From the NCBI GenBank assembly GCA_051294905.1, contig CM119371.1, positions 3,164,001 to 3,228,000 of the forward strand: DNA of 64,000 bases, given 5' to 3'. Positions 1,146-25,159 of the stretch are shown here, one piece after another. This stretch comes from Botryllus schlosseri. Lineage: Eukaryota. Numbering within the stretch: the stretch's first letter is position 1; each line of letters opens with the position of its first letter. The notes under the pieces were generated by a model. It was not told the origin of the DNA and made no database searches. It saw nothing but the letters and a program-made list of their open reading frames with translations. The translations under genes were made by a program, and so were the position numbers.

Positions 1146-1982
1146 GGGGCTGTTCAAAAACATTTTTTCAAATTTTCCGGCTACTTCTTAAAATTGCTAG
1201 ATTGCCTAAAAAATCAAATTTGGCTCAATTCCAACCTGTAGAAAGCAATGCTATGAAAGAAAATTTTAGACTAATTACAAATAGAGATTTTAGAATTTTA
1301 CCGGCTATCTCATGATATAGTTACATTGTGTAAAAATATGATTCATAGCAAATTTGACTCAATTCCAACTAGAAAAAGTGAAGTTATTAGAGTAGAATGT
1401 TTTGGTAGGCTTACCATATTTTGGAAATCAAAAAAGAGGACACTTTTTCAGAAATTTGCAACTGGCAAATCCGGAGTCAAATTCTCATCACTTCCGCTCA
1501 GAGCTAAAAAAAAAAAGGTCATATTTTCGCTCAGAGCTAAAATCACCGTTTTTCACTCCGAAATACCCGCCGGAGCTTCACTTCAGTGCTAATATGCGGC
1601 ATATCACTCGCAATTTGCTCTAAATCTGCCTAAATTTTCAAAAAAGAGGACAAAATCTCAAAAAAGAGGACAAAAGGGCGTCCTCCGAGGACACTTTCAA
1701 AAAAGTCAAAAAAGAGGACAAATCCTCTTAAAAGAGGACGCATGGTAAGCCTAGTTTTGGATATGAAAAAATAGTCGGCTTACTATTATGTAATTATATT
1801 ATATGAAAGAATTTCTCACTAAAATACTCCATTTATTTTAAAATCCAAAATATTCTCCTCTCACATCATTGATTCCACTTTTTTCAAATTAAGCCAGATT
1901 CAGTGTTCCTTTTATGCAACATAACAATTTTATCAAGTAACCACCCAGTAAAATAAAAAAGAAGTTATTTTAGAACAGCCAT
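1146..1982. mobile_element. MITE with GGGGCTGTTCAAAAA-type ends and apparent AT TSD, nested in the hAT element
   Basis: GGCTGTTC / GAACAGCC inverted ends flanked by AT; shares internal AAATTTGGCTCAATTCCAACC repeats with copies at about 29470-30042, 41247-41728 and 51330-51790. Confidence 0.6.
1406..1753. mobile_element. hAT (Blackjack/Tip100-like) MITE
   Basis: TIRs TAGGCTTACCAT / ATGGTAAGCCTA; flanking duplication GTTTTGG (7 bp visible); AAAAGAGGACA subterminal repeats; inverted relative at 61027-61446. Confidence 0.8.
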
Positions 1983-2098
1983 ATTGTACAAACATCACAC
2001 AACATTAGCCATTCATTATTATACTCACGTGCACAATGCACATACCTAACAAAACGTCAAATGGACGAGGGGCATTATGTGTTTTCACAGACAGCAGA

Positions 2099-2400
2099 TC
2101 AAATCAATTTGTTACACCTCAAAAATACTAATGTGGAAAGGAGATCCTCAGATATGTTAAAGCGGCATGGTCGTAGAATGAATCCACATCTACTGAATAC
2201 ACGTTCCACTAGTGCACTAGATGCAGGAATTGACAAGCATTTTTGAACCACACTGAAGAGCATTGAATACTCATTCTTTCTAGTCGCCCAAAAATGCAAA
2301 GAATCATCGCCTTCAAATCTACACATGAGCTTATCAGTCTCTTGATCATCTGAGTCATTTCATTGGCTCTAATTGAACTTTGCTTCAATTGTTTGCTTGT
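2099..2400 (-). pseudogene. hAT transposase C-terminal dimerisation domain remnant
   Basis: ORF 2099..2326 reads LHFW...YSMLFSVVQKCLSIPASSALVERVFS...LVFLRCN, matching the hAT dimerisation motif (W...L.IPASSA..ER.FS); no catalytic core seen upstream. Confidence 0.85.
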
Positions 2401-5400
2401 ATAATTGAAAAGTCTTGAGTACTTTAATTGCGGAGGATCTATTACCTCTTCATCACTGGACGATTTTGTACAATGCATCATTGCTACTATGTATCATTTT
2501 CTGTTGTTTTTACGGTGGCATATCTGATATGAGACAAGTGCAACGAAAGCAGTGGTGACAAATAGCGATGTCGGCAGAATTCGTCGGATGCGTTGATCTG
2601 GCCATTACGATTCGCAAATTTCTTCATCTTCAAGTCATATAAAATAAGCCGAGTCAATGACTTGGGTCGAGTCATGCGTAATGACTCGAGTACAAGTCGA
2701 GTCAAGCCAAATATTGACTCGAGTCGAGTCGAGTCATTTTCCCATTCCGAGAAAATGACTCGAGTCAAGTCGAGTCATAAAAAAGTCGTGACTCGAGTCT
2801 GACTCGAGTCGAGTCATGACTCGAGTCATTACAACCCTGCATGCTTCGGTATTGATATCTACGCATCAAAAAGAGCTTAAGAATAATTCAAAACTCGTAT
2901 CTGCGCAGTATTGAGGGCCGGGTATTCTACGGAACTGATTGTGCCCGGTGAAAGCTGGTATATACGCTCTATTTGGGGTCAGACATGCATCGGCGTGGAC
3001 ATATGTGCACGAAAAACAGTGCCACCGATGCCTCATACCAAGCTTTAGATTCTCGCAACAATTGTATCCGGACATGGACCGGAGCTGATATGTGAACTTC
3101 AAAATAGCCCTGACATGGCACGCACTCGATATCGTCGCACTGAATGGACTCATACATGCTTCAAACGTGATATCCCCGCGCTATCCACCTTGCAAACAAT
3201 GCGCGATCCGAGATAACTTTTAAATGACATTTATACACGCAGACGCAGTTACTATTACTTCCGATTTTTTTTTCTAGATTGCGATTAAAATTACTTGAAG
3301 ATGCTGCAATCGTCGAAATCGCTTGCAATTATAAATATGATTACCCCATGTCTGCTCCAAATGCATTTTGTCATTTTTCGCCAGCAACAAGATAAAACAT
3401 GACCAAACATCAACAAAGGATTATTTCAACAACTATTCTATTCAGCAAATTCAATTGCAACACATTGTAAAATGAGTAGCTAGATGGAACTCTATTGAAC
3501 GACTCCATCAATCAACTCGGGATAAAAGTTGAAACAATAAATAGATTAGTTAATTCGATATGGCGCGTCACTTCGTGCCTCCAGATCATTGAATCAGCAT
3601 CCCCTACCCACATGATTCGGTTTATCGCTTAGTGTGACATGAAGTATGACGTGCTGAAAATTCCATGCATCAACACTTCTGCGCGTGACTGAAATCGTAG
3701 TTGTTTCCGGAATAATCTGTTAGAGGCAGTCATTTTGCAGCATAGAGATTTGCGCAGCGTTCCTTTATGCGTGTGACAAATGCGCGCGATTCGGCAGCGA
3801 AGTCAAATCGGTTAGTTTCATAAATAAAATTAATTGGAAAGCAAGTAACGGTTACCATTCTTGACGAAATGGTTTTATTAAGCAACATGTTCTATTACCG
3901 CTTACAAACTAGCTTCAATGCTATGTGCATTCCATTGATAGTTCAAGCATCATCATAATATTTCAGTCGACTGATGAAACATCTTGGTGCAAAGCTCTAT
4001 AACAGTAATTCGCAAACTTTTTTTAAACACGCTCATTGATAGTGGTAATTATCGCGCCCCTAGTATCACATTATAAAACTATTATCAAGAGCAACAAGAA
4101 TATTTGCGTTCATAATGCATACTTTGATGGCATTTGAGGTTATGACTGTTGAGAGACCTTCCAAATATGAAATTCAGACTATACCCAGGCCAATTACCAG
4201 TTGGAGCGTGGCCAATGGTTGAAGTGAATCTCGGTGGACGAGAAAAAAATATATCGTTGAATAATTTGTCAAGAATAATCATGTCCTGTCCACGTATCAC
4301 GTAGCATATACATACTTTAGAAATTTTGGTGTCAAATGCCTTTTATTTCCTCACTTGGGCTATAGGCTCAATCAAAAACCATAATTTCTAAAGATCCAAA
4401 ATCATTTCACACATGTCATCAAAAGCATGTCACACATGGCGTATAACATGACCTGATAAGAAAATAATTTATTTCTTCATAACGTTGTCTCCTACTACGC
4501 ACTCTGCACAGATGGCTCACAGACAGACCATAAAAACATTAGCTAACACATACACGCAAGTTACTCCTAATTCGTGGTCATTCCGATCGTTAGGTTCGAT
4601 GTATGGATGGTACGAAGCCATCATGGCATATGAAATCGTACTATAATTCGGATTATTGACATTGTTTAAACATGGAAGTTTCCGCACCCATTAAACTCAC
4701 TCTGAGTTCGAGAAACTCCGCTTTACTCAGGCGGCTTACCGCCAGGGCTTTGGAGCCGGAGCCGGAGCCCGGAGTCGGAACCCCGGAGCCATGCATTTTC
4801 ACCGGAGCTGGAGCCGGAGCCGGAGCCGGAGCTCTACATAAAATTCAGCCAGAGCCGGAGCCGGAGCTGGAGCCCACGATTTGAGGAGTAGCTCAGGCTC
4901 CGACGTTTTTCATAATATGCTAATATATATGCAACAACCACATCTGCTGATTTATCATAATTGAACAGCAGGCCTGAATTTTAATGCTGTGTACAGCAAT
5001 GGCATAGAGTAAAGTGCGTTCTAGTGCAACTATGATGTTATCGACCAGCATTGACAAGTATTCATTATAACGTCACAAGCCGGAACGGCGGCACCTATGT
5101 CTTCGTTGCTACATCGGATGTAACTGTCGGTTGACAAACTCTAGATTACTATAGATAACTAACCTATGTGTAGATCAGTAATCTATATAGACCAGAAATG
5201 GCCACCTTGTTCGGCTAAAGGGGCACATGAAATTGACGAACGAGTGCGCGGTCCACTAGCCGCGCTAAGCGGGTAAAATTTTCAAAGTTTATATATAAAC
5301 TAGGTCAATAATATTATTACTTGAGTATATTGCGGGTCTACTGTATACCGCCCGCTAGGCCCAATTTGCAAGGACACGACTATTCGGCGTCTGGCCACAT

Positions 5401-5819
5401 CGATATCGAAGGTCTCCGATAACATGCGACTATGATTTTGCGCCTACATTTCATCGTCGACGATCTTTATGCGAGCGCAAACGCGAAAAGACTTTCTCCC
5501 GTAATTGCGAATAGACTCAATCGGGTAAATTGGGCGTTTTTTTCATTTTCGATAGGGGGTAGGCTACCAAGCAAGAAATCGTGTGACAATTAAACACGCG
5601 AAGCGTGAAGAAAAATTTCGCCACTATTTTAGTTTATTGTAATGTACGACGATTTACTCAAAATGTGACTGTACCATGGATCTGCCAATGCGTCGGAACT
5701 GATATTTTAGTCATCAACATCCCAAGTGTCGCAGCCATACTTGTAATTTTTGGTTGGCATTGCAAGTTCACAATCTGAGCAATTTATTTTCGATAATAAG
5801 TAGTATTATACACGGTAAC

Positions 5820-6275
5820 GAGGCGCGCCCCAATCAGCGTCGAGTATTTGATCACGTGACATCTGTTAGCCAATCAGAATGCAGAACGAAGTGGGTGTGG
5901 TTCCAATACGAGAGAGGTTTTGGTTGTGCGAGAGATGCCATAGTTCCAGTCCAGTAACGCTGAGATATTTATTACGTCATGTTTGCGTAAGTTGATTACC
6001 TTCAATATGATTGCGTATTGCAGTTGAAGCATGTACAGTATTGATTACGTCATATGCGCAGTTGATTACTTTAGTTATTTCGAGAGCGTCTTTGCTTAGT
6101 TCCAGTAATGCTGAGATATGATTACGTCATGATTGCGTCTAGTTCCAGTCCAATAACACTGAGAAATATTTACGTCATTATGATTGCGTATTACAGTTGA
6201 AGCATGTTCAGTAATGATTACGTCATATGCGTAGTTGATTACTTTAGTAACGCTGAGATATGATTACGTCAATAT
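5820..6275 (+). promoter_or_regulatory. Putative subterminal promoter/enhancer motif cluster, left arm
   Basis: CCAAT boxes (about 5830, 5870, 5903), E-box TCACGTGAC (5852-5860), GT box GGGTGTGG, six TTACGTCA ATF/CRE-like sites (5972, 6045, 6122, 6170, 6218, 6264). Motif evidence only. Confidence 0.5.
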
Positions 6276-9200
6276 TGCGTTGATCGCCTTTGTTATTGCA
6301 GTTGAAGCAAGTGCAAGGCAGTATACAACGTGTAATATTTATTACATGATTATTCGCTGTACGCTGTAGATTGAATATGTGTAATAATATAAAAATTGGC
6401 TAAAATTGTGAATATCTAATCATTGTGAAAATAGCAATTATCTCATGTTGTTGATGAAAATGATCAGCTTACGTTGTTATAAGCTCCTAAGCATGATTTA
6501 AATATGTTTTAAATATTTCATTTTTTAAATAATATTACTTTGCTTCTAACTTTGGAATAATAATTATTGATAATATTTTCATTATTCATTGAAATCATTG
6601 TAGCTTATAACGGTGTACATCTTTTAAATATTATTGTAATGATTTCAATTAATAACAAAAAAATATTATCAATAATTATTATTCCAAGTTAGAACCAAAG
6701 TAATATTTTTTTCAAAAATGGAATATTTAAAAAATATTTAAACCATGCTTTGGAGCTTATAACAGCGTAAGCTGATTATTTTCATCAACTACACAAGATA
6801 ATTGCTAATTTCACAATGATAACATATTCAGTCATAATATAAAAATTGGCTAATATTGTGAATATCGAATCATTGTGAAATTAGCAATTATCTCATGTTG
6901 TTGATGAAAATGATCAGCTTACGTTATTATAAGCACCAAAGCATGATTTAAATATTTTCAAATATTCCACTTTTTAAATATTATTGCTTTGGTTCTAACT
7001 TTGAAACAACAATTATTTATAATATTTTTTCATTATTCATTGAAATCATTGTAGCTTATAACGGGTGAACTGAACATCTTTTTAATAATATTGTTGCTTT
7101 GTGAATATCTTATTGATTTTTAGTTAAATTATCGATTATCTTGTATAGTTGATAAATTAGTTTGTATAAAAGAAGTTCACTGTTATAATCTACATGATTT
7201 CAATGATTATTAAAAATAATTTTAATATTAAATCTAACAAAGTAATAATATAAAAAAAATTGGCGAATATTGTGAATATCTTATCATTGTGAAATTAGCA
7301 ATTATCTCGTGTTGTTGATGAAAATAATCATCTCACGTTGTATTAGGATTTATTTTACAAAACTGTAGTGTAAAGGTCTTTAGTACTTTGGAAAAAGTAG
7401 TTTCTTTCTACTTTACTAAATTTGATGTAAAGTGTTCGACGATTTAAAAAATTTGTATTTATTTTTCAAAATTCCCAGTATAAAAGTTTTTACAAAATCG
7501 ACTTGAGTAAGTACTGTCACTAGGCAAACCCTAGCAGAGTGTACTCTGATAAATGTAGTAGTAGTAATCGATTATCGCGAAATAAATAGATAACATACAA
7601 TATGTGCTTTGCTACGATATCTCATAAATACTTTCATTTAATGTATACAAGTAGGTTATTTATACGTTAAGCCAAGAATAAAAAATTAACGCTGTCTCCA
7701 TAGAAAGATATGTAAATATACTAGAACGGTTACATCTGGACGCCTGCAAGTAAGAACGTAAGCTGGTCATTTTCATCAACAACATGAGATAATTGCTAAT
7801 TTCACAATGATTAGATATTCACAATATAAGCCAATTTCTATATCATTACTGAATATCTTATCATTGTGAGGTTTATTCAACTCTCATTAATCCGGGATTC
7901 TAGAACTACTGAAGTCTCATGGAATTATAAAATACCGTGCTTTGCAAACAATGTAAAAATAATAGAAGCGAAGTTAGCTTGGTTCCCTGGGGACATCTAT
8001 GCCTTTGTCAGGAATGTTCATCCAACGATTAGGTAATTGAATACGCGCGCTTATCAATGCGTCTTGAAAAGCTAGTGGACGGGAAGTGAATACCCTAGAC
8101 AAGTCCGAACCTGTATATATTGCAGCATATTAGAGATAGCTTGCGCAATAGCCCTAAATACAACAAAATGCGGAGAGCTGATATCGCAATAGGTGCGCGG
8201 TATTTGACAATAACAAAACCCAATTGTTCGAACTTAGTGGATCCCATACCGCATTGTTAGCTCTAAATACTTAACCATTGAAAAATCTATTCCCCAATGA
8301 GTTAGACAGCAATGCGTTAGTCGTAGCGATTCAATCGCGTGCTCTATAATAACAAAAACACAAATGACTTGGTGGATATCACTGCTAGCTCTAAATACCA
8401 GTCGCATAGCTGAGGCTAAATGCCGTAAATAACTACTGAGTTGGCCGAGTGGTGACTTACTCGCTCGGAAATCGTCACTTCTTGCACTTTACTAAAAATT
8501 TGCTGCTACTAAAATGGTAAAATGTACTTTTTTCAATGGCCTTGATGAGCAGCGTCAGTTTCATCTATATCCTATCATGCATTTTCGCACAGCAGAATGA
8601 CTTATCGCATCGTAAAATATCAAAAATACATCGAGAATCTGCAGACCCACACTGCGAAATATTTGAGTTTTACGAATTATCCTTCAAAGTGAGCATACAT
8701 ATTGGATATCATCCAAACCCTCTCGATATCGAAATAATTGATTATTTGGAGTACTCAAGTATAGGTTTCGCCTGCTTGGGCTATACTTAATCAAGCGATT
8801 ATCTGTTTAGACTAGAGTTTTCAGTTATCAGACAAATAATACCTTCAATACTTACTTTTTTTAGTCACTCGGAAATCAGCACATCATGTACTTTGGAAGA
8901 AATTTACTGGTAATAGAATGTTGAAATGTACTTTTCCATTGGCCTTGATGAGCGGGCCCAGTTTCATCTATATCCTACCATGCGTTTTCACACTTCAGAA
9001 TGACTTATCACAATGAAAAATAGCACAAATACATCGAGAATTGGCGGAGTCTCACTATACGATAATTGAGTTTTACAAATTATCCTTCGAAGTGAACCTA
9101 CATGTTGGGTATTATCCAAAACCTCGTAGAATGTCGCTCCGAGCGACAAATCCTTTGAATTAAGGTGGAAGCAGCTATTTCCGACTAAGTAAAATGTTAG

Positions 9201-10572
9201 TATTCTAGGTCAATTTCTGCTTAATTCTGAAACTATAGTGGATTTGAAGCAGTATAATATCATAAACACTTGAGAGTATTTGGTACATGTACACTAAAAA
9301 CTTACTTGAGTATACTCTGAAGAAGTCAACATTTACTTGTTTAGCAGCTCGGAAATCATCACTTCTTGTACTTTACTAGAAATTCACTGCTGATGAATGA
9401 GTAATCGACTTTAGTCGATATTTTCGTACTACGAAACTGAAGAATGAATAGACGCGTTTTCGAACTATAGAAGGATATAGTCTCTACAAAATGTTTTTGA
9501 TATCAAAATAACTTTTTTACATGAGTGGTCACGTATCTTAATATTCAAATAACCCAACACAGAACTAGTATTACAAGAATATCATAGTTCTTGTACCAAA
9601 GTTGTGTGTGCACAATATATGTTTAAGGTAAGTCCTACACATTCATGATTTCGTCCGAGTTTGTATTTTAGAAAATAATATACCGACATCGCGACATCTT
9701 TCAAAAACAAAACCATGATCACTGCTTGAGAGACCTATCAATGTCATCACAGTAATCTTGTAACTTCCACAAAAGAGTAGATATGTATTTGACTTTCGTT
9801 CCACAAAGCTAACGCGCAAACAATTTACTTTACTAACGAGAAGTATCGAGTAATCGAATGATTTTCCCTTACATCAAAACAAATAGAATGTAGATTGTAC
9901 AACTATATTTCTAACGTTCCCAACCCTTTGCACACCGCAGTTGTAAATCACACAAGCAACAAGTTTCGAGAAACGAGTTATTGAATAACGTGAAAGTGTT
10001 TTTCCAGTGTCAAGTCGTTATGTTGATTAAAGCATATAATGTAATACCATGAAGTGAGACTTCGAAACCATCGGCAGTTCTCCATGAGCAAATATCGTGT
10101 TCTACAAGTGTTAAGATATAGTATTATGTAGCTAGTAATTGATGCACGTAAACTCGGGATCGAACCAACGTGTGTTAACTTGCGTTATTATGTACCTAGT
10201 AATTGGTGTGAGTAATGCCGCAACTGCTGTTGTTCAATGCATTTACCATGTTCTTAGCAAGCATCTTAATAAGGATAGACAGCCCTAAGCAAATAATGTA
10301 AGTATGTATGTATGAATGATTGGTCTAATGATGCTTAACGACAGAAGCTGGTCTTCTATTCTATATTCCGAAATAATCAAGTTCGTGGTTTACCAACACC
10401 TAGCCTCATAGAAACTTGGTAGAATCACTTATAAATCCTCACGTTCACTTAACTAAATCTAATTTGATACTCGAGTACTGAACCTTAATTTTCCAGCAGT
10501 GTGATAGACGCCGTCAGATGGTACTCAACATCGCATAATTCTGCTCGAATACAAGTAAAAGTACAGATTTCA

Positions 10573-10573
<1 letters not shown>

Positions 10574-10605
<32 letters not shown>

Positions 10606-10621
10606 GGTAAGTAAGTGAGTA
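10574..10621 (+). repeat. (AGTA)n microsatellite in the left arm
   Basis: 8 perfect units then variants; the mirror copy at 15874-15909 has 9 perfect units. Confidence 0.95.
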
Positions 10622-13218
10622 ACTGGTTGTTTGTAGACTATATCTCCACTTCTACCTTTCAGAGATGTTGAGCAGAGAAGTACATGTGTTTCTTCAAAGT
10701 AGTCAAGTAGGTTTTTGGCTACATGCACCAACTACTCAAGTGTTTATGATATAGACCTGTTTCGAATTCAAGACAGTTTCAGTATTAAACAAAAATGGAC
10801 CTTGAATACTAACTTTTTATAATGTGAAATTTTAAATGCATAAACGAAGAAACGTCACTTTTACAATGCTTCGGTATGATTTCTATATTATTCCACTCTC
10901 GTTATTGGACTGCGGTGTGACGGTGAGCTATATCTCGATGCCCGGGCTTCCGAATTAATTTTTTCGATTTATTCTACCCTATGTAGATTTAACATAAGGA
11001 AGGTTATTTCACTCATAAAATTTGAAATACGTATTTGCTCGAGTTAAAGCCATAACGCTTGGAGTGAAATTTTACATGGTTTTCGTTAATATCCAACTTG
11101 GCTAATTCCGAAATGTAAATTGAAAAACTGAAATATCGCATAGTAGGACTTCGCAAATTTTCGATATATTTTTGCTATTTTTTCATGGTGATAAGTCATT
11201 CGGGACGGTGAAATGCATTATAGGAAATAGATGAAACTGGTACAATTCATCAAGACCCCTGAAAAAAGTACATTACATTTCAACATTTTATTAGCAGGTA
11301 ATCGAAATACCACAAACTGTGCTAACCTTCGGAGTTGTTAAGGAAAGAAGTACTCGCACTTCTTCGGAGTAGCCTACCCAAGTAGGTTTTTCGCCTCGAT
11401 GCACCAAATACTCTCAAATCCATATGATATTGGAGTGCTTCAACTTCATGATAGTTATAGTATTAAGCGGAAATATACCTGGAGTACTAACGGTTTACTT
11501 ACTCGGAAATGACTACTTCTATCTTATTTTAAAGGATTCCTCGCTCGACGCGAAATTTTATTAGGTTTTGAATAATATCCAACATGTAAGTTCACTTTGA
11601 AGGCTACTTCGTAAAACTCAAATATTGCACAGTGAGAGTTCGTTAATTCTCGATGTATTTTTTGGTATTTTTATTGCGGTAAGTCATTCTGCAGCGCGAA
11701 AATGCATCGTAGGATATAGATGAAACTGACAACGCTCACCAATACCACTGGACCACAGAAAAAGTACGTTTCAATATTTTAGTAGCAGTAAATTCCTAGT
11801 AAAGTACAAGAAGTGATGATTTCCGAGTGAGTTAAAAAGTAAGTATTGTAGGTATAATTTGGTCGAAAACCGAAAACTCTGAAATAGAAGTAGATGCAGT
11901 GTAAAAAAGTTAATGACTTGATTAAGTATAGCACAAGCAGACCAAACCTATACTTGAGTACTTCAAAATGTACAAGTACTTCGCTATGGACTCCCTCTAC
12001 GTAAAAAGTGACTAGGTTTTAGACTACTTTATCGGTACTTGACAGTTTCAATTTTAGATAAGATTTGGAATAAAAACTAGCTCATTCACCCACTTGGAAA
12101 TCTCTTCTTCAACCTGTACTTGAGCGTAACAAGTGAATCTCATTTAATATTAATTCTACACGTACACTTGACCATATTTTAGGACTTACATAATTACTTT
12201 TCCATATATTTGAAGTCAAGTCTGTCAAATAGCAGTATATGTTACGATGAGCTTATATTCGTTCTGTTTGCTCATCTTGACTAATGATATTCACTCGGTG
12301 AGCTCTCCAGTAATAGCCTTGGGACTTAGAACAGTGTTATATGACATCATAGCGATACAAGGTTACGACAGTTTATAATTAGCTACCTTACGACACCAAA
12401 TTTCGTTAGTTCATCTCCACCTTCAAATACCGTCTTATACAAATATTGTGTATACGCAACAAATACATATATGGCTATGTTGTTGCAATCTGCAAAAAAG
12501 TACCCCCCTGAGTAACCAATTTCTGGTAGGCTATGCATACAAATGAGGACAGTTACATCAACGAGTCGTAACTTGTTGTATTATGTAGCTAGTAATTAGT
12601 GCAAGCAAGTCCGCAACTACTGTTCAAGACCTTTTCCGCGTTTTTTGTCAAGCATCCTCGTAAGGACAGACAGTCCCAATCAGCTAATGTAAGTGTGTAT
12701 GTATGTATGAGGGGTCTTATGACGGTTGACGAATGAAGTTGGTCGTCTATTCTATTCCGAAATAATCAAGTTAGTGGTTTTTAACAGCACCTCACCTCAT
12801 AGAAACTTCAGTAGAATAACTTATAACTCCTCACGTTTACTCAACTAAATCTAATTTGATAATCAAGTACTGAATCTTAATTTTCAAACGAGTTCAAATT
12901 TTACTCTAACTTATGAGATAACATATAATAACTTTTCACGATGCAATGTATTTTACAGCATGAGCCAAGTGATTTCGTAATTAACACAAGATAATTAAAT
13001 GAATTTCTAGAGTATTATAAGACATTCGTGTCATCCTCCTTCGTATATCATAAAAGAATATCTACTGCAGTCGATTTGTAATTATTTGCGCTGTGTTTGA
13101 TTAACTCAATCATGTCACAGGGATTTTTAATAAAAAAAACTCTTTTACAGCATAAACCAAATAATTTCATAATAAACACAAGCTAATTTCATAATAAACA
13201 TAAAAATATTTCCGCGCC

Positions 13219-13260
13219 CTCCTAAACCTAATTCCTCCTAACCCTATAACCTAATCCGGA
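13219..13260. other. Non-palindromic centre of the giant inverted repeat
   Basis: CTCCTAAACCTAATTCCTCCTAACCCTATAACCTAATCCGGA between TTTCCGCGCC and GGCGCGGAAA. Confidence 0.9.
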
Positions 13261-15873
13261 GGCGCGGAAATATTTTTATGTTTATTATGAAATTAGCTTG
13301 TGTTTATTATGAAATTATTTGGTTTATGCTGTAAAAGAGTTTTTTTTATTAAAAATCCCTGTGACATGATTGAGTTAATCAAACACAGCGCAAATAATTA
13401 CAAATCGACTGCAGTAGATATTCTTTTATGATATACGAAGGAGGATGACACGAATGTCTTATAATACTCTAGAAATTCATTTAATTATCTTGTGTTAATT
13501 ACGAAATCACTTGGCTCATGCTGTAAAATACATTGCATCGTGAAAAGTTATTATATGTTATCTCATAAGTTAGAGTAAAATTTGAACTCGTTTGAAAATT
13601 AAGATTCAGTACTTGATTATCAAATTAGATTTAGTTGAGTAAACGTGAGGAGTTATAAGTTATTCTACTGAAGTTTCTATGAGGTGAGGTGCTGTTAAAA
13701 ACCACTAACTTGATTATTTCGGAATAGAATAGACGACCAACTTCATTCGTCAACCGTCATAAGACCCCTCATACATACATACACACTTACATTAGCTGAT
13801 TGGGACTGTCTGTCCTTACGAGGATGCTTGACAAAAAACGCGGAAAAGGTCTTGAACAGTAGTTGCGGACTTGCTTGCACTAATTACTAGCTACATAATA
13901 CAACAAGTTACGACTCGTTGATGTAACTGTCCTCATTTGTATGCATAGCCTACCAGAAATTGGTTACTCAGGGGGGTACTTTTTTGCAGATTGCAACAAC
14001 ATAGCCATATATGTATTTGTTGCGTATACACAATATTTGTATAAGACGGTATTTGAAGGTGGAGATGAACTAACGAAATTTGGTGTCGTAAGGTAGCTAA
14101 TTATAAACTGTCGTAACCTTGTATCGCTATGATGTCATATAACACTGTTCTAAGTCCCAAGGCTATTACTGGAGAGCTCACCGAGTGAATATCATTAGTC
14201 AAGATGAGCAAACAGAACGAATATAAGCTCATCGTAACATATACTGCTATTTGACAGACTTGACTTCAAATATATGGAAAAGTAATTATGTAAGTCCTAA
14301 AATATGGTCAAGTGTACGTGTAGAATTAATATTAAATGAGATTCACTTGTTACGCTCAAGTACAGGTTGAAGAAGAGATTTCCAAGTGGGTGAATGAGCT
14401 AGTTTTTATTCCAAATCTTATCTAAAATTGAAACTGTCAAGTACCGATAAAGTAGTCTAAAACCTAGTAACTTTTTACGTGGAGGGAGTCCATAGCGAAG
14501 TACTTGTACATTTTGAAGTACTCAAGTATAGGTTTGGTCTGCTTGTGCTATACTTAATCAAGTCATTAACTTTTTTACACTGCATCTACTTCTATTTCAG
14601 AGTTTTCGGTTTTCGACCAAATTATACCTACAATACTTACTTTTTAACTCACTCGGAAATCATCACTTCTTGTACTTTACTAGGAATTTACTGCTACTAA
14701 AATATTGAAACGTACTTTTTCTGTGGTCCAGTGGTATTGGTGAGCGTTGTCAGTTTCATCTATATCCTACGATGCATTTTCGCGCTGCAGAATGACTTAC
14801 CGCAATAAAAATACCAAAAAATACATCGAGAATTAACGAACTCTCACTGTGCAATATTTGAGTTTTACGAAGTAGCCTTCAAAGTGAACTTACATGTTGG
14901 ATATTATTCAAAACCTAATAAAATTTCGCGTCGAGCGAGGAATCCTTTAAAATAAGATAGAAGTAGTCATTTCCGAGTAAGTAAACCGTTAGTACTCCAG
15001 GTATATTTCCGCTTAATACTATAACTATCATGAAGTTGAAGCACTCCAATATCATATGGATTTGAGAGTATTTGGTGCATCGAGGCGAAAAACCTACTTG
15101 GGTAGGCTACTCCGAAGAAGTGCGAGTACTTCTTTCCTTAACAACTCCGAAGGTTAGCACAGTTTGTGGTATTTCGATTACCTGCTAATAAAATGTTGAA
15201 ATGTAATGTACTTTTTTCAGGGGTCTTGATGAATTGTACCAGTTTCATCTATTTCCTATAATGCATTTCACCGTCCCGAATGACTTATCACCATGAAAAA
15301 ATAGCAAAAATATATCGAAAATTTGCGAAGTCCTACTATGCGATATTTCAGTTTTTCAATTTACATTTCGGAATTAGCCAAGTTGGATATTAACGAAAAC
15401 CATGTAAAATTTCACTCCAAGCGTTATGGCTTTAACTCGAGCAAATACGTATTTCAAATTTTATGAGTGAAATAACCTTCCTTATGTTAAATCTACATAG
15501 GGTAGAATAAATCGAAAAAATTAATTCGGAAGCCCGGGCATCGAGATATAGCTCACCGTCACACCGCAGTCCAATAACGAGAGTGGAATAATATAGAAAT
15601 CATACCGAAGCATTGTAAAAGTGACGTTTCTTCGTTTATGCATTTAAAATTTCACATTATAAAAAGTTAGTATTCAAGGTCCATTTTTGTTTAATACTGA
15701 AACTGTCTTGAATTCGAAACAGGTCTATATCATAAACACTTGAGTAGTTGGTGCATGTAGCCAAAAACCTACTTGACTACTTTGAAGAAACACATGTACT
15801 TCTCTGCTCAACATCTCTGAAAGGTAGAAGTGGAGATATAGTCTACAAACAACCAGTTACTCACTTACTTACC

Positions 15874-15910
<37 letters not shown>

Positions 15911-18900
15911 TGAAATCTGTACTTTTACTTGTATTCGAGCAGAATTATGCGATGTTGAGTACCATCTGACGGCGTCTATCACACTGCTGGAAAATTAAGG
16001 TTCAGTACTCGAGTATCAAATTAGATTTAGTTAAGTGAACGTGAGGATTTATAAGTGATTCTACCAAGTTTCTATGAGGCTAGGTGTTGGTAAACCACGA
16101 ACTTGATTATTTCGGAATATAGAATAGAAGACCAGCTTCTGTCGTTAAGCATCATTAGACCAATCATTCATACATACATACTTACATTATTTGCTTAGGG
16201 CTGTCTATCCTTATTAAGATGCTTGCTAAGAACATGGTAAATGCATTGAACAACAGCAGTTGCGGCATTACTCACACCAATTACTAGGTACATAATAACG
16301 CAAGTTAACACACGTTGGTTCGATCCCGAGTTTACGTGCATCAATTACTAGCTACATAATACTATATCTTAACACTTGTAGAACACGATATTTGCTCATG
16401 GAGAACTGCCGATGGTTTCGAAGTCTCACTTCATGGTATTACATTATATGCTTTAATCAACATGACGACTTGACACTGGAAAAACACTTTCACGTTATTC
16501 AATAACTCGTTTCTCGAAACTTGTTGCTTGTGTGATTTACAACTGCGGTGTGCAAAGGGTTGGGAACGTTAGAAATATAGTTGTACAATCTACATTCTAT
16601 TTGTTTTGATGTAAGGGAAAATCATTCGATTACTCGATACTTCTCGTTAGTAAAGTAAATTGTTTGCGCGTTAGCTTTGTGGAACGAAAGTCAAATACAT
16701 ATCTACTCTTTTGTGGAAGTTACAAGATTACTGTGATGACATTGATAGGTCTCTCAAGCAGTGATCATGGTTTTGTTTTTGAAAGATGTCGCGATGTCGG
16801 TATATTATTTTCTAAAATACAAACTCGGACGAAATCATGAATGTGTAGGACTTACCTTAAACATATATTGTGCACACACAACTTTGGTACAAGAACTATG
16901 ATATTCTTGTAATACTAGTTCTGTGTTGGGTTATTTGAATATTAAGATACGTGACCACTCATGTAAAAAAGTTATTTTGATATCAAAAACATTTTGTAGA
17001 GACTATATCCTTCTATAGTTCGAAAACGCGTCTATTCATTCTTCAGTTTCGTAGTACGAAAATATCGACTAAAGTCGATTACTCATTCATCAGCAGTGAA
17101 TTTCTAGTAAAGTACAAGAAGTGATGATTTCCGAGCTGCTAAACAAGTAAATGTTGACTTCTTCAGAGTATACTCAAGTAAGTTTTTAGTGTACATGTAC
17201 CAAATACTCTCAAGTGTTTATGATATTATACTGCTTCAAATCCACTATAGTTTCAGAATTAAGCAGAAATTGACCTAGAATACTAACATTTTACTTAGTC
17301 GGAAATAGCTGCTTCCACCTTAATTCAAAGGATTTGTCGCTCGGAGCGACATTCTACGAGGTTTTGGATAATACCCAACATGTAGGTTCACTTCGAAGGA
17401 TAATTTGTAAAACTCAATTATCGTATAGTGAGACTCCGCCAATTCTCGATGTATTTGTGCTATTTTTCATTGTGATAAGTCATTCTGAAGTGTGAAAACG
17501 CATGGTAGGATATAGATGAAACTGGGCCCGCTCATCAAGGCCAATGGAAAAGTACATTTCAACATTCTATTACCAGTAAATTTCTTCCAAAGTACATGAT
17601 GTGCTGATTTCCGAGTGACTAAAAAAAGTAAGTATTGAAGGTAATATTTGTCTGATAACTGAAAACTCTAGTCTAAACAGATAATCGCTTGATTAAGTAT
17701 AGCCCAAGCAGGCGAAACCTATACTTGAGTACTCCAAATAATCAATTATTTCGATATCGAGAGGGTTTGGATGATATCCAATATGTATGCTCACTTTGAA
17801 GGATAATTCGTAAAACTCAAATATTTCGCAGTGTGGGTCTGCAGATTCTCGATGTATTTTTGATATTTTACGATGCGATAAGTCATTCTGCTGTGCGAAA
17901 ATGCATGATAGGATATAGATGAAACTGACGCTGCTCATCAAGGCCATTGAAAAAAGTACATTTTACCATTTTAGTAGCAGCAAATTTTTAGTAAAGTGCA
18001 AGAAGTGACGATTTCCGAGCGAGTAAGTCACCACTCGGCCAACTCAGTAGTTATTTACGGCATTTAGCCTCAGCTATGCGACTGGTATTTAGAGCTAGCA
18101 GTGATATCCACCAAGTCATTTGTGTTTTTGTTATTATAGAGCACGTGATTGAATCGCTACGACTAACGCATTGCTGTCTAACTCATTGGGGAATAGATTT
18201 TTCAATGGTTAAGTATTTAGAGCTAACAATGCGGTATGGGATCCACTAAGTTCGAACAATTGGGTTTTGTTATTGTCAAATACCGCGCACCTATTGCGAT
18301 ATCAGCTCTCCGCATTTTGTTGTATTTAGGGCTATTGCGCAAGCTATCTCTAATATGCTGCAATATATACAGGTTCGGACTTGTCTAGGGTATTCACTTC
18401 CCGTCCACTAGCTTTTCAAGACGCATTGATAAGCGCGCGTATTCAATTACCTAATCGTTGGATGAACATTCCTGACAAAGGCATAGATGTCCCCAGGGAA
18501 CCAAGCTAACTTCGCTTCTATTATTTTTACATTGTTTGCAAAGCACGGTATTTTATAATTCCATGAGACTTCAGTAGTTCTAGAATCCCGGATTAATGAG
18601 AGTTGAATAAACCTCACAATGATAAGATATTCAGTAATAATATAGAAATTGGCTTATATTGTGAATATCTAATCATTGTGAAATTAGCAATTATCTCATG
18701 TTGTTGATGAAAATGACCAGCTTACGTTCTTACTTGCAGGCGTCCAGATGTAACCGTTCTAGTATATTTAAATATCTTTCTATGGAGACAGCGTTAATTT
18801 TTTATTCTTGGCTTAACGTATAAATAACCTACTTGTATACATTAGATGAAAGTATTTATGAGATATCGTAGCAAAGCACATATTGTATGTTATCTATTTA

Positions 18901-20208
18901 TTTCGCGATAATCGATTACTACTACTACATTTATCAGAGTACACTCTGCTAGGGTTTGCCTAGTGACAGTACTTACTCAAGTCGATTTTGTAAAAACTTT
19001 TATACTGGGAATTTTGAAAAATAAATACAAATTTTTTAAATCGTCGAACACTTTACATCAAATTTAGTAAAGTAGAAAGAAACTACTTTTTCCAAAGTAC
19101 TAAAGACCTTTACACTACAGTTTTGTAAAATAAATCCTAATACAACGTAAGATGATTATTTTCATCAACAACACGAGATAATTGCTAATTTCACAATGAT
19201 AAGATATTCACAATATTCGCCAATTTTTTTTTATATTATTACTTTGTTAGATTTAATATTAAAATTATTTTTAATAATCATTGAAATCATGTAGATTATA
19301 ACAGTGAACTTCTTTTATACAAACTAATTTATCAACTATACAAGATAATCGATAATTTAACTAAAAATCAATAAGATATTCACAAAGCAACAATATTATT
19401 AAAAAGATGTTCAGTTCACCCGTTATAAGCTACAATGATTTCAATGAATAATGAAAAAATATTATAAATAATTGTTGTTTCAAAGTTAGAACCAAAGCAA
19501 TAATATTTAAAAAGTGGAATATTTGAAAATATTTAAATCATGCTTTGGTGCTTATAATAACGTAAGCTGATCATTTTCATCAACAACATGAGATAATTGC
19601 TAATTTCACAATGATTCGATATTCACAATATTAGCCAATTTTTATATTATGACTGAATATGTTATCATTGTGAAATTAGCAATTATCTTGTGTAGTTGAT
19701 GAAAATAATCAGCTTACGCTGTTATAAGCTCCAAAGCATGGTTTAAATATTTTTTAAATATTCCATTTTTGAAAAAAATATTACTTTGGTTCTAACTTGG
19801 AATAATAATTATTGATAATATTTTTTTGTTATTAATTGAAATCATTACAATAATATTTAAAAGATGTACACCGTTATAAGCTACAATGATTTCAATGAAT
19901 AATGAAAATATTATCAATAATTATTATTCCAAAGTTAGAAGCAAAGTAATATTATTTAAAAAATGAAATATTTAAAACATATTTAAATCATGCTTAGGAG
20001 CTTATAACAACGTAAGCTGATCATTTTCATCAACAACATGAGATAATTGCTATTTTCACAATGATTAGATATTCACAATTTTAGCCAATTTTTATATTAT
20101 TACACATATTCAATCTACAGCGTACAGCGAATAATCATGTAATAAATATTACACGTTGTATACTGCCTTGCACTTGCTTCAACTGCAATAACAAAGGCGA
20201 TCAACGCA

Positions 20209-20664
20209 ATATTGACGTAATCATATCTCAGCGTTACTAAAGTAATCAACTACGCATATGACGTAATCATTACTGAACATGCTTCAACTGTAATACGCAA
20301 TCATAATGACGTAAATATTTCTCAGTGTTATTGGACTGGAACTAGACGCAATCATGACGTAATCATATCTCAGCATTACTGGAACTAAGCAAAGACGCTC
20401 TCGAAATAACTAAAGTAATCAACTGCGCATATGACGTAATCAATACTGTACATGCTTCAACTGCAATACGCAATCATATTGAAGGTAATCAACTTACGCA
20501 AACATGACGTAATAAATATCTCAGCGTTACTGGACTGGAACTATGGCATCTCTCGCACAACCAAAACCTCTCTCGTATTGGAACCACACCCACTTCGTTC
20601 TGCATTCTGATTGGCTAACAGATGTCACGTGATCAAATACTCGACGCTGATTGGGGCGCGCCTC
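20209..20664 (-). promoter_or_regulatory. Mirror copy of the subterminal motif cluster, right arm
   Basis: Reverse complement of 5820-6275. Confidence 0.5.
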
Positions 20665-21029
20665 GTTACCGTGTATAATACTACTATAATATATTAGGAA
20701 ATTACCTCGCGGGCCACGTAAAACCCTCTCGCGGGCCACATTTTACCCGCGGGTTGGCCAGCCCTGATATAGACAGGCCCATTCGATAATTTCAGAGCCG
20801 GAGCCGGAGCAGTGGTAATAATGCGGCTCCGGAGCTGGAGCCGGAGCTAATCTATGATAGAAGAAAGCTCCGGAGCTGGAGCTGGAGCAGTTTAAATTTA
20901 CGGCTGCTCCAAAGCCCTGCTTACCGCCCCTTCAGACGCTTTCACGACCCCGAAAGGTACGCGTCCCACAAGAATCACTACTGTATGGGAAGTAAGCTGA
21001 CATTGCCAAATTAACTGTGAATTGGTTTA

Positions 21030-22400
21030 CACGAGTCGTAAACTCAAATATATCACATTTCAGAGACCTTTGCCGCTAAGTAGTTTTATCAAACTTATCC
21101 CACATACACCGCAAGCAGGTTTATGGTACGATCCAAGTGGCAACGAAGCTGGGACACGCTGCTTTGTCAAAATAAATTTTCCCGCAGGCTTTTGAAATGA
21201 AGAATGATATGAAATAATGATTAGGGAAGTTACCAGTGGAAGATTCCAATGAAGAAAAAACTGCTAAGAAACCCCACAAGTATATGTTATCTTACCGATA
21301 TGAAATTATATTGCACGATACATATTACCGTCCCATCGCTTTAGTTTGCCAACAAACTGTTTTATGCCTTCGTGAAGCTATGCCAGTGCCAGCAGCATAA
21401 GTTATCTCATCTTCCATGAATTCTACTAATTGCGCAGTTCCTGTACCAGGCTGCATATTCGTAACATATATTGCCACTTCAACTGCACGAAAATCGTACA
21501 TTGCGTTACAGCGCAATGAGAACATCCTGCTATTGCAACCTTTGATTTAATATCGAACTCTAAAATGAAGCTCCTGTTATGCATCGAATTCATATTATGC
21601 CTGTAAGGAGAGTAATGGATCATTTTATACAATTACAACGTTTTCTGTACCATAGTTTTGTTGTGGCTGCGCAATCTCTAAATTGTTTACAACATTGCCT
21701 TTTCCAAGTGCTTTCGGCGCGTGAGGCGAAATCAGGGATGATTAGTTCTCAAGAGTTTCGGCTGTTACTCATCACTATGGACGAGCTATCTGTCCGCCTG
21801 AAAATTATCATCAATGTAGTGTACAGTTCATCGTTACAAGTATCAGCATAATATTTCAGTTGGTTGGTGACAGATATTGGTGAAATAAGCTCTATACGGA
21901 TTACGTCGACATTGCCATGTCATTGAGTGTTTATTTTTTATACGAGTCGTGAAATTACATATATCATAGTTTTACCAAATTTATGTCGTACACGGTAAGC
22001 AGGTTTATAGCACATTATCTGAGTGACAAATTAGCTGGGATAGGCTACTTCGTCATAATAAATTCTACTCAGGCCTTTCATGGAAGTGTGATATCAAATA
22101 ATAACGATGAAAGTAGCCAGTGGAAGATTCCATTGAGAAAACAACTGCTTCAAAGCCCTATAATGCTATGTTATCTTGTCAATATGTAATTATATTCCAT
22201 AATAAACATTAGCAACACTTCGCTTTAGCTGTTCGCAAACTGTTTTATGTCTTTGTGACGCTGTGTTCATAATAGCAGTATAGGTTATCCAATCCAGCAT
22301 AAACAATACTAACTTAACAGTGCCTGTACCAGACTGCATACTCGTCACATATGCTGTAACTTACTGCACGAAGCTCGGGATTGCGTTACATCGCTGCGAA
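21030..22400. repeat. Diverged direct duplication (about 21030-21520 vs 21940-22400)
   Basis: Colinear shared blocks such as ACGAGTCGT.AAA, AGCAGGTTTAT, CCAGTGGAAGATTCCA, ATGTTATCTT, CCTGTACCAG.CTGCATA. Confidence 0.75.
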
Positions 22401-22710
22401 CGGATTCCTGTGCGGTGTATGAGTTCACATGTATGCATTCTAAGCCGATGACGTGAGTCAGCTTGCTATTGCTTCCGCTCTGCAAGCAACCCGATCTATT
22501 ATCGAACTGAACTAGATAAGTATGCTATTACTTTGCATTTCACTACAGACATGCATGCGATTCCACGCGCCTTAATAGCGTGACTGTTTATTCCAAGAAT
22601 AAACATTTTTGAACTGCATCAATGACGATATTTCATAGTTCACAATTACATATAGAACGTGATGCGATGATAATCCACGTACACATTCATAAGATACAGT
22701 TTAAGGTCAG

Positions 22711-22950
22711 ATCAGTGGCGAGTAAATTACTTGTATGATCCACAGCTGCAATGGCAATGGATTGAGGATTCGAGTCCGACCGTGGTGTTGGAAATTAATC
22801 TAGGTTCTTCTTCGCCATATCAGCCGTAAAAGCCTAGAAGTGGAACGTGCTATATAAGTCGGCAGCTACTGAATAAAAATGAAAGAAATTGGCCTGGTGT
22901 AAATGACCAGAGAAGTCGACAAACACCATGAATACCACAAACAACAAGAA
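22711..22950 (+). mobile_element. tRNA-derived SINE-like repeat
   Basis: B-box-like GGATTCGAGTCC; conserved body (AAGTCGGCAGCTA...AATTGGCCTGGT...AAACACCATGAA); (ACA)n-like tail; copies at about 35365-35580, 42925-43135 and 61009-61575. Confidence 0.6.
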
Positions 22951-23369
22951 GGCTATATTGTTTATAGGTAATATAAATGTATAAACCGTATCAGTTTATT
23001 CAAAACTATATATACGAGATTTGGTAATGACTTAAGGTGAATACGGTACACGTTAGCAGTCTATAGAAAATATTTACATTGGTATAAATCAGGGGTACTA
23101 GGCAATCTATGGTTCTTTTGATGACATATGCCTCGCAGAGAAATATAAAATGTGATTTATTAAGTATTATTGAAAATCAAATTGAAAGCAAAATCGAAAT
23201 CTCTTCCAAATCTGCTTTGTTATTCTTCATCAGAAATACACATTCGTGATGTACTTTGCACGGTATACATGCAACGCATCGCCTGACTTTCTATGATTCT
23301 CATAAGGAAAATACAAGTGAAACGAATTGAGGAATATCGACTGCATCTAATATCGAAATTTCAGGTCAG

Positions 23370-23835
23370 TCGGGTGGTAATGACTTGAGTCGTGTCTCGA
23401 CTCGAGTCGCGATTTTTCAGTAACTAGACTTTTCTCGACTCGAAGCAATTTGTGTATTGACTCGACTTGTACTCGAGTCAATACACATGACTCAACAAGT
23501 CATAAAACTCATGACTCGGACGGCCTAGACAGGCATTTCGTTGTAACTTCGAAAAATAGTAGCCTGCGCTACCACATAATGCTAGGCAATAAATATCCAC
23601 CGAACATAGTTACAAAAAGGTGAGTTGAACATGATTGACCTTGAAAATGAACAGGTAACACCATGACTTGGACACGAGTCTCAACACTGTGGCTATGGAC
23701 TAAAACTGTTGAACCATGACTATGACACGGAATTGGCTCGGTGGTGATTAAAAAATGACTCGACTTGACTCGAGTTAAAACTAATAATGTAGAATTGATT
23801 ATGACTCGGGATCTTGTGACTCGGTTACAACCCTG
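23370..23835. mobile_element. GACTCGAGTC-family hAT MITE, opposite orientation to 426-2839
   Basis: Ends in GGTTACAACCCTG; body similar to both ends of the 426-2839 element; no clear TSD. Confidence 0.75.
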
Positions 23836-24296
23836 GGATATGGTAATGTTTGATAGATCACGACCCAGGCGCAAAATTAATTGATGTGGCCTCGAAAAAT
23901 ATTCTTGACACGCGGATTTCGAAAATATTTGCCAAACAATTTCGAAAAATTAAAAATTCGACACGGTCTAACAGCATAAATATTACCATAAATATGACCT
24001 ATTACGGCGTTCCAATTATTCACTACAAAGTAAGTCACATGGTTCCAAGTCACAAGTCAATCGTACTTTTCTGTAATTAATGGAGTCGAGTCATTTTGAA
24101 TTCATAATCGAGTCAAGTCTAATTCGTGGTGGAAAAGGTCGCGCCCGAGTCTAAGCAATTGTGTCCACTGTTCAGTTTCGAGTTCAAGTCATGTTCAACC
24201 CAATTTTTTACAACTCTGCTCGAGTGGTATTGAATGCCTCACATTCATAATGTGCTGATTTCTGTCATTCTCAACAATTTCTGACCACTATTTTGC

Positions 24297-25158
24297 AGTG
24301 TTGGGATGACTTGTGTGAACTTTTTCGTATGACTTGACTTGACTCGAGTCACTTTGCCAAAATGACTTGACTTGACTCGGCACTTCAGAAATGTGGATTG
24401 ACTCGTGACTCGGAGCTAAATTCACGAATCAATTTCAGGTCATCAAGTAAACTGGCTCGATTAAATATATGTGTGTTGTGTATGTTAGGATTGTACGCCG
24501 ATGTCACTTGTGAGAATAACCATTCATTCACTGATTGTACATTTCACTGATCCTCCCTAGTTACATCACAAATAAATTGACCGCAAAAGAAATGATCACA
24601 GCCTACGTTGTAGTAGTTGTAGATTAATATAATTCTAATGGCGACGCGTGTCTGTTTCTTAGACGGCTCAGTGCTCACCTTTACCAATCCTATTGTGTGA
24701 TTTAAATCGAACGAATATAGTTTATGCGTCTATAATCTCACGGATGTGTAGATGGATGGGTAGCGTATTGTACGACATCCATTTGTTTCAACTTCCCGAG
24801 GCTTCGAATACGATCCTCAATTTGGGGTGATAATAACAGACTGTAGCATGGAGCTATACAGTTACTCACTTATTTTATTATGCGTGCGTGACACACACAT
24901 GTGTGAGCGACACAACATATTTTTACATGTATTCAACTTTATATTCGTTATTTCATTCAGGATAAATAGCCTTGATCTGTCCTTCACGCACCGAGCAAAA
25001 TGTGATGACTTTAAATCATTAATCATGCTTCGAAAATTCAATTTGACTTGAAATGTGACTTGACTTGTGACTTGACCTGACTTGACTCGAGTCACCTCCA
25101 AAAACCGAGTGACTTGACTTTACTTGGAAGAAAACGGTAATTTTCCAATGCGTCACAC
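24297..25158. mobile_element. CAGTGTTGGGAT-family hAT MITE with GACTT/GACTCGAGTC repeats
   Basis: Same start and body as copies at 35712-36590 and 43269-43830; right end degenerate. Confidence 0.7.
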
Positions 25159-25159
25159 T

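Follow-up and report, generated by a model that had tools for sequence, protein, structure and literature searches.

A multi-copy family of non-coding palindromes with Polinton-type ends in Botryllus schlosseri

We analysed a 64,000-nucleotide (nt) stretch of the Botryllus schlosseri genome (the window; contig CM119371.1, positions 3,164,001 to 3,228,000, assembly GCA_051294905.1), in which positions 5799 to 20685 form a single long inverted repeat. This element is likely to belong to a multi-copy, non-coding, non-autonomous family derived from Polinton/Maverick elements, in which the whole body is an inverted repeat around a conserved loop of ~40 nt and the palindrome arose once, in an ancestor. 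The ancestral palindrome was probably formed when a fragment of a coding Polinton's right end was duplicated in inverted form, in the ancestor of the family and not at the window locus. A preliminary description, made from the letters of the window, had read the locus as a one-off snap-back genome; the palindrome and its loop turned out instead to be the inherited architecture of a multi-copy, diversified family. Coordinates are positions of the whole window unless they are prefixed L (genome extracts) or G000:C (contigs of the same genome).

The palindromic family and its conserved centre

An inverted-repeat search paired 5799-13218 with 13261-20685 in inverted orientation through three contiguous blocks and left 42 nt between them. 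In a direct arm-versus-arm comparison, the left arm of 7420 nt and the right arm of 7425 nt differed by 9 substitutions and 2 indels, a 1-nt indel in an A run at 7260 and a 4-nt AAGT microsatellite indel at 10573. A palindrome of such length and identity cannot be a chance product. The left junction reads ATAATA/AGTAGT and the right junction ACTACT/ATAATA, so that the arms, the 42-nt spacer, the ends and the exact duplication given in the preliminary description were all reproduced. Its statement that the element is non-coding also held: no open reading frame (ORF) of at least 100 amino acids (aa) was found in the window arms, and the longest of the 6 stop-to-stop ORFs of at least 70 aa overlapping 5799-13260, one of which begins in the flank, was 89 aa. 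A search for RNA genes found no tRNA, and Rfam gave only 3 sub-threshold matches to miRNA hairpins, which are due to the palindrome.

The same architecture recurs throughout the genome, which was searched as 495.5 Mb in 219 contigs. With the terminal 502 nt as query, the best 40 of 173 candidates gave 73 matches forming at least 17 inverted end pairs, spaced 10-32 kb apart and spread over many contigs. Further pairs were matched by the terminal 100 nt, by the centre and by two inner arm segments, and the loop lay at the midpoint wherever this could be checked. All nine copies examined, the window element and eight others, were palindromic from the termini to the centre. Five of them (the window, C3a, C11, C2b and C13) are simple palindromes of 14.9-15.8 kb with an arm identity of 99.85-99.97%, while the C15 copy holds a nested 16,573-bp coding Polinton within one arm and the C6 copy has inserts on one arm only. 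Eight of the nine copies are flanked by a perfect 6-bp duplication, and all eight are different (ATAATA, TGCGAC, TAATAT, CTTGCC, CACCTC, CTAGAT, CCAGTG and GTAAGG); in C6 the two flanking hexamers agree at 4 positions out of 6. The preliminary description had asked, as a check on its claim, for further loci that share the termini but carry 6-bp duplications of their own, and the genome contains them. The sister copy C3a, on another contig, is 99.9% identical to the window element and has a different duplication. No ORF of at least 150 aa was found in the 8 arms scanned, the longest being 148 aa, in C6. With at least 17 pairs of ~15 kb, these elements occupy at least ~0.25 Mb here, and virus-like Polintons would accordingly be able to spawn abundant non-coding parasites. 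A second palindromic member of the family (G000:C1:3286665-3302229, 15,565 bp) lies on the same contig as the window, ~59 kb past its end.

The centre of every palindrome is an asymmetric loop of ~40 nt, rich in CCTAA and closed by CCGCGCC/GGCGCGG, which was kept in 9 of 9 copies. As single-stranded DNA, the hairpin topped by this loop has a folding dG of -41 kcal/mol (z -16). The loop was found in both orientations among the copies. Since the orientation of a palindrome is set only by its loop, such flipping is uninformative by itself and becomes informative only in combination with asymmetries between the arms. The loop of the window element (13219-13260) consists of three CCTAA units plus CCCTA. 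We considered whether the loop is a copy of the host telomere and rejected this: host telomeres consist of TTAGGG, which gave 11,434 matches, an array near 41.8 Mb of contig C1 among them, and not of TTAGG, for which 25 internal matches were found.

The features of the locus are as follows (groups A and B, and the parent element, are described below).

5624-5798, unstranded: left half of the interrupted short non-coding repeat, with very high word depth; the right half is 20686-20923
5793-5798, unstranded: left target-site duplication ATAATA; a paralogous uninterrupted copy has one ATAATA
5799-13218, plus strand: left arm, 7420 nt, opening with AGTAGT (inverted-repeat search and arm comparison)
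5799-6380, plus strand: terminal segment with homology to the coding Polinton's right end (582 nt at 87.6%); its first 268 nt also match the left inverted repeat
6381-7869, unstranded: AT-rich sub-repeat zone, GC 0.276, with direct and inverted units of ~100-130 nt, ~450 nt apart
10573-10622, plus strand: (AAGT)n microsatellite; its right-arm counterpart at 15857-15910 has one unit more
10864-13188 (arm 5066-7390), plus strand: centre-proximal 2.3-kb module, 92% between groups A and B; mirror at ~13291-15615
13219-13260, plus strand: asymmetric CCTAA-rich centre loop, closed by CCGCGCC/GGCGCGG and kept family-wide
13261-20685, minus strand: right arm, 7425 nt, closing with ACTACT (inverted-repeat search and arm comparison)
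20104-20685, minus strand: mirror of the parent-derived terminal segment (arm comparison and match to the parent end)
20686-20691, unstranded: right target-site duplication ATAATA, read directly

Both flanks of the element are collinear with a paralogue, L033:8420-8874, which has a single ATAATA at the insertion point, and contigs from the DNA runs X1 (10) and X5 (4) pass position 5798 straight into sequence resembling the right flank. The flanks behave as one short multi-copy repeat. These results support the earlier proposal of a single insertion into a repeat. The same proposal had called that repeat a Charlie-like element; this Charlie-like (hAT) identity was not confirmed. No ORF of at least 120 aa was found in 1-5798 and only one, of 126 aa, in 20686-27000, and the right-hand terminal 21-mer of the host repeat was found once in the window, with no inverted partner there. 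The comparison with four sequencing runs covered 5300-13420 rather than the whole palindrome, and its DNA runs consist of short contigs of a multi-copy family. In the RNA run X23, of which ~6 in 100 was read, 56 reads were placed, 55 of them only partly, which gives no evidence on expression.

The lengths of the simple copies fall in a narrow range: 14,480, 14,884 and 14,887 bp, four at 15,227-15,232 bp, 15,565 bp, 15,796 bp, two at 15,967 bp and one of ~16.2 kb. The C15 copy measures 15,726 bp once the nested element is subtracted. The simple palindromes thus span 14.5-16.2 kb, compared with 16.6-17.9 kb for the coding elements described below (16,573 and 17,829-17,882 bp) and 17,987 bp for a rearranged one. 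It may be speculated that this clustering, which persists despite different middle modules, reflects a limit on length, for instance through packaging; shared ancestry accounts for it as well.

Two longer copies, C2a (23.6 kb) and C4 (25.6 kb), each look like an arm-loop-part arm unit followed by a part arm-loop-arm unit. Their inner junctions are exactly 100 N (L036:2261-2360, C2 ~17.04 Mb; L049:2805-2904, C4 ~27.24 Mb), and the sequence on either side of the gap runs through a centre separately. We rejected the idea that these copies are fresh copy-back events, because a 100-N junction with the inner parts duplicated on either side reads as overlapping contig ends across a scaffold gap; the two are expected to be simple palindromes of ~15.3 and ~15.8 kb. 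Copies on C8 (~4.63 Mb) and C16 (~3.65 Mb) have two centres each, which may be the same scaffold-gap artefact, and contig C1 begins inside a copy. The 15-kb palindromes of this family break assemblies and create false duplications at scaffold gaps.

Coding Polintons and the parental ends

The genome also holds coding Polintons. A query of 1336 aa from a protein-primed family B polymerase (pPolB) gave 36 listed matches for the best 35 of 364 candidates, in identity classes of 92-100%, 62-65% and 38-39%. The 364 first-look candidates in three identity classes indicate a Polinton-rich genome. The element nested in the C15 copy has AGTAGT ends and the duplication TGTAGT, and its ORFs include the 1336-aa pPolB used as query (score 0.97 against PF03175 clusters), an rve integrase (E 4e-8) and one that is ATPase-like, among others. 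On C12 there is a second coding lineage, whose termini are (AGT)2-3 and whose duplication is AACACT. A third class is represented by end pairs 17,829-17,882 bp apart, with six such pairs among the matches listed for the terminal 100 nt. Terminal AGT units vary in number: the window element has 2 and group B has 3, and the two ends of the C12 coding element differ as well (left 2, right 3), as expected from slide-back initiation.

The coding element whose right end is homologous to the palindrome ends, referred to here as the parent, belongs to this third class and was read whole in one copy (C4:1877888-1895721, 17.8 kb), and the right end of a second copy was 99.7% identical. The duplication TCGGTT flanks this parent copy on C4, whose inverted repeat measures 254 bp (96% identity). 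Profile searches identified an integrase (rve, 2e-13, and Chromo, 3.4e-10) and a packaging ATPase (Pox_A32, 1.4e-9); pPolB is present as a 1153-aa frame plus a 161-aa C-terminal piece, and there are homologues of the putative capsid and protease ORFs of the nested element. A coding copy with the same type of termini, the second check named in the preliminary description, therefore exists in this genome, with pPolB, integrase, ATPase and capsid-like genes. The description had also assigned the ends and the 6-bp duplication to the Polinton/Maverick type, and this assignment was borne out: AGTAGT-type ends with a 6-bp duplication are present in 4 of 4 coding or rearranged Polintons examined (TGTAGT, AACACT, TCGGTT and GCCTTA). 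Just inside its left end, the parent carries two cellular-type genes as cargo (L053:335-853 and L053:1346-1816, both on the plus strand; G000:C4:1878134-1879615), one for a protein of the Bcl-2 family (Pfam E 4.8e-21), the other for an E2 ubiquitin-conjugating enzyme (E 1.6e-47).

The homology between the arms and the parent is one-sided. Arm positions 1-582 of the window element match the parent's right end (L022 1963-1419) at 87.6%, and arm positions 1-268 also match the left end (L053 89-339). In other copies the right-end match was 92.3% over 621 aligned positions (C2a) and extended over 576 aligned positions (C6). It covers about 582-617 nt in groups A and C and ~1 kb in group B, whose arms carry an additional 144-nt block of the parent's right end ~1.5 kb in. 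The left end of the parent is matched only across its inverted repeat of 254-268 nt. Each arm thus starts with (AGT)2-3, followed by the homologue of the inverted repeat and then by 0.3-1.3 kb of right-end-specific sequence. Since the homology continues beyond the inverted repeat on the right-end side only, both ends of every palindrome correspond to the parent's right end. Each arm would therefore offer, at its outer terminus, the same sites to a helper integrase and, by inference, to a protein-primed polymerase.

The parental share of each arm is limited to the terminal ~0.6-1.6 kb. The remaining ~6 kb per arm had no similarity to the three coding lineages by blastn or tblastx, except for a 261-nt dispersed repeat. 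The fold-back origin proposed in the preliminary description fared accordingly: both ends do come from one (right) parent end, as it predicted, whereas the arms as a whole do not represent a folded-back Polinton genome. Its view that the element is non-coding and needs a helper agrees with the ORF-poor arms of the window and with the presence of a coding Polinton with homologous ends in the same genome. The AT-rich zone at 6381-7869 consists of dispersed-repeat units, and the parent copy on C4 itself sits within a further copy of this repeat (L053:1-88, L022:1964-2170).

A rearranged element on another contig (G000:C15:11059686-11077672; L055, L056) is 17,987 bp long, is flanked by the duplication GCCTTA and carries a perfect inverted repeat of 934 bp. 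As far as its ends were examined, both correspond to the parent's left end, including the Bcl-2 region, and one side jumps from parent position ~955 to ~4800; its length is within 1% of the parent's. Judged from its ends, this element appears to be a second product of the same kind, that is, of an inverted duplication of one parent end.

Concerted evolution of the arms and competing readings

The arms evolve in concert. Two segments are shared between groups at 86-96%, namely the termini (~1.5 kb) and the centre-proximal 2.3-kb block (window 10864-13188), which appears mostly as symmetric inverted pairs among 40 listed genome matches. For the middle 3.5 kb of group A (window, C3a and C2a), group B (C11, C2b, C13 and C4) has nothing collinear, and what C6 has in common with other copies is limited to the first 3.1 kb and the centre. 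These differences between the modules of the groups are mirrored on both arms. The same pattern was found at the level of single sites. In four-arm comparisons of copies 0.8% apart, C11 and C13 showed 59 differences on both arms versus 12 on one, and C2b and C13 showed 57 on both arms versus 13 on one. Since a substitution arises on a single arm, this excess of both-arm differences demands efficient copying from arm to arm.

The remaining asymmetries between the arms indicate how this copying occurs. The window element and C3a share 2 sites with the same left/right arm asymmetry. C11 and C2b, whose loops are opposite on the chromosome, share 3 asymmetries in a crossed pattern. All 5 shared asymmetries thus follow the loop, which indicates that arms and loop are copied as one unit and that homogenisation is occasional. 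The fact that asymmetries are inherited between sister copies also means that the arms are not rebuilt at every move. Concerted arms with inherited asymmetries linked to the loop provide a sequence-level read-out of the copying mechanism. Separately, 6 of the 11 arm differences of the window element are private to its left arm and clustered in 1.6 kb (7260-8839); either conversion from another copy or a local burst of mutation could have produced this cluster.

The following sequence of events would account for these patterns. A helper integrase would insert the palindromic element, and a helper pPolB would copy it, starting from either of its identical ends. Once displaced or excised, the single strand would fold on itself as a complete hairpin, which takes the 'racket' proposed for Polintons to its extreme. 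The arms would be kept alike by mismatch repair within this hairpin, or by self-priming in which one arm serves as template for renewing the other, damaged one, and the same processes would mirror kilobase-scale changes and leave an occasional inherited asymmetry. Near-identical sister copies at different sites suggest, indirectly, mobilisation by a helper. We put forward the hairpin route to arm homogenisation tentatively, as somewhat short of an even bet.

The main alternative is gene conversion from arm to arm within the chromosome, with no hairpin or single-stranded intermediate and with an integrase alone moving duplex DNA. This could equally homogenise the arms, and we regard it as possible though rather less likely than not to be correct. 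It agrees with the joint inheritance of arms and loop, since asymmetries that track the loop leave no room for rebuilding from one arm at each move, and with the arm identity of 99.85-99.97% in every copy, including C6 with its imperfect duplication. If conversion acted in place, however, then inserts acquired after integration should in time be erased or doubled, but those of C15 and C6 have stayed on one arm. Whole middle modules of 3.5 kb also differ between groups and are nevertheless mirrored on both arms.

A bolder version of the hairpin route, which we consider unlikely, takes the family for a heritable satellite, with a hairpin genome, of a Polinton virus: a 15-kb strand snapped into a 7.5-kb duplex, open and protein-primed at one end and looped at the other, copied by a helper polymerase, inserted by a helper integrase and perhaps packaged in helper capsids. 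If this were true, then packaging in capsids would explain why elements with unrelated cargo modules measure 14.5-16.2 kb beside helpers of 16.6-17.9 kb, and the identity of the arms would directly record the single-stranded 'racket' intermediate that has long been postulated for Polinton replication.

Several points weigh against the reading of the family as Polinton derivatives with a palindrome inherited from one ancestor, in addition to the chromosomal alternative. Nine copies were read whole, and the family counts are lower bounds because 40 candidates were scored per search. With ~6 kb of unrelated sequence in each arm, it is by its ends that the element would be classed as a derivative. 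The one-arm insertions (a Polinton nested within C15, inserts within C6) mean that homogenisation is not continuous in place. The extrachromosomal, hairpin and replicating forms are inferred, the family being known here from integrated copies. Finally, the short DNA-run contigs, which cover 5300-13420 within a multi-copy repeat, showed neither a bridge across the loop nor an empty allele and so provide no read-level proof of the structure.

The remaining readings are far less probable. The preliminary description held that the window locus is one integrated snap-back defective genome, produced by a template switch during Polinton replication. The full-length reverse complementarity of the window element is indeed that of snap-back defective genomes, as these are defined in PMC13506859, and both of its ends are one parent end. 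In two defining respects it departs from such a genome: parental sequence makes up only 0.6-1.6 kb per arm, and the element did not arise anew, since loop and asymmetries are inherited. The same loop and architecture are present in 9 of 9 copies and at many more loci, in lineages 4-18% apart, and the 99.9%-identical sister sits on another contig with a different duplication. We consider this reading very improbable for the window locus; it survives only as the origin of the ancestor.

A fold-back transposon of another superfamily (MuDR-related Foldback or P-type Galileo) that merely resembles Polintons at its ends is a still weaker candidate. Very long inverted repeats and a lack of coding capacity are typical of fold-back elements. 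Their target duplications, however, are 9 or 7 bp long, compared with 6 bp here; the termini of the palindromes are 86-92% identical over 250-620 nt to a coding Polinton end; and the arms are not built of tandem repeats, a search for which found only three small arrays. We know of no Foldback-type transposon with Polinton ends.

It is hardly credible that fold-back chimeric reads or mis-joined contigs made the palindrome: two copies do contain exactly 100 N with duplicated inner parts and contig C1 starts inside a copy, but the window element has both flanks, an exact 6-bp duplication and collinearity with an uninterrupted paralogue, the centre always lies at the same conserved loop, the arms carry substitutions of which 5 recur at sister loci in register with the loop, and in both gapped copies each side of the gap runs through the centre separately.

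Comparison with known systems

To our knowledge, replication of Polintons/Mavericks has never been shown experimentally, and both the racket model and protein priming were inferred from gene content and end repeats. The present family is a natural gene-less substrate with two identical ends, and sequence homology clearly points to a helper in the same genome. In the full-text literature searched (Repbase and subscription journals lay outside the search), we found no description of palindromic, fold-back non-autonomous Polintons/Mavericks.

Polintons are described as having a 6-bp duplication, inverted repeats of 100-1000 bp and terminal tandem repeats of 1-3 bp, and a single-stranded, racket-like intermediate copied by a protein-primed polymerase has been proposed for them (PMC4196379). 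For Mavericks, (AGT)2//(ACT)2 is reported as a common end motif that would serve 'jumping-back', the mean size is given as 16,862 +/- 1,678 bp, constrained near 17 kb, and the inverted repeats of vertebrate elements as 46-1,447 bp (PMC8097293). The palindromes resemble these elements in their (AGT)n...(ACT)n ends, 6-bp duplication, terminal inverted repeats and length near 15-18 kb, and their ends are homologous to those of a coding element. They differ in that they are gene-less, in that the inverted repeat takes up the entire element (7.4 kb per arm, versus 254 bp in the parent), and in that both ends derive from one parent end while most of the body is unrelated to the parent. A Polinton 'by definition' encodes a protein-primed family B polymerase and a retrovirus-like integrase (PMC5499653); because the palindromes have neither polymerase nor integrase, they are not Polintons sensu stricto.

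Snap-back or copy-back defective genomes share with the family a highly symmetric palindrome, the presence of the same terminus twice and dependence on a helper. Such genomes are described as short-lived, made anew from parental sequence and mostly found in RNA viruses (PMC13506859), whereas the palindromes here are heritable, diversified, integrated and largely non-parental.

Adenovirus provides a DNA-based parallel, with defective genomes that carry an inverted duplication of one end and with panhandle repair of the terminal repeats. These genomes are likewise protein-primed replicons with trinucleotide terminal repeats that allow jumping-back, and one end is inverted and duplicated; unlike the palindromes, they are not integrated, form no stable family and still consist of viral sequence.

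Foldback-type transposons (Drosophila FB and Galileo) have very long inverted repeats, sometimes with almost no middle, and non-coding copies that are mobilised in trans, but they belong to other superfamilies, have other duplication lengths and are built of tandem-repeat arms. Large chromosomal palindromes are similar in the behaviour of the arms, with an arm identity above 99.8%, a short unique spacer and concerted arm evolution; in contrast to the mobile, virus-ended family described here, they are immobile and have neither target duplications nor viral termini.

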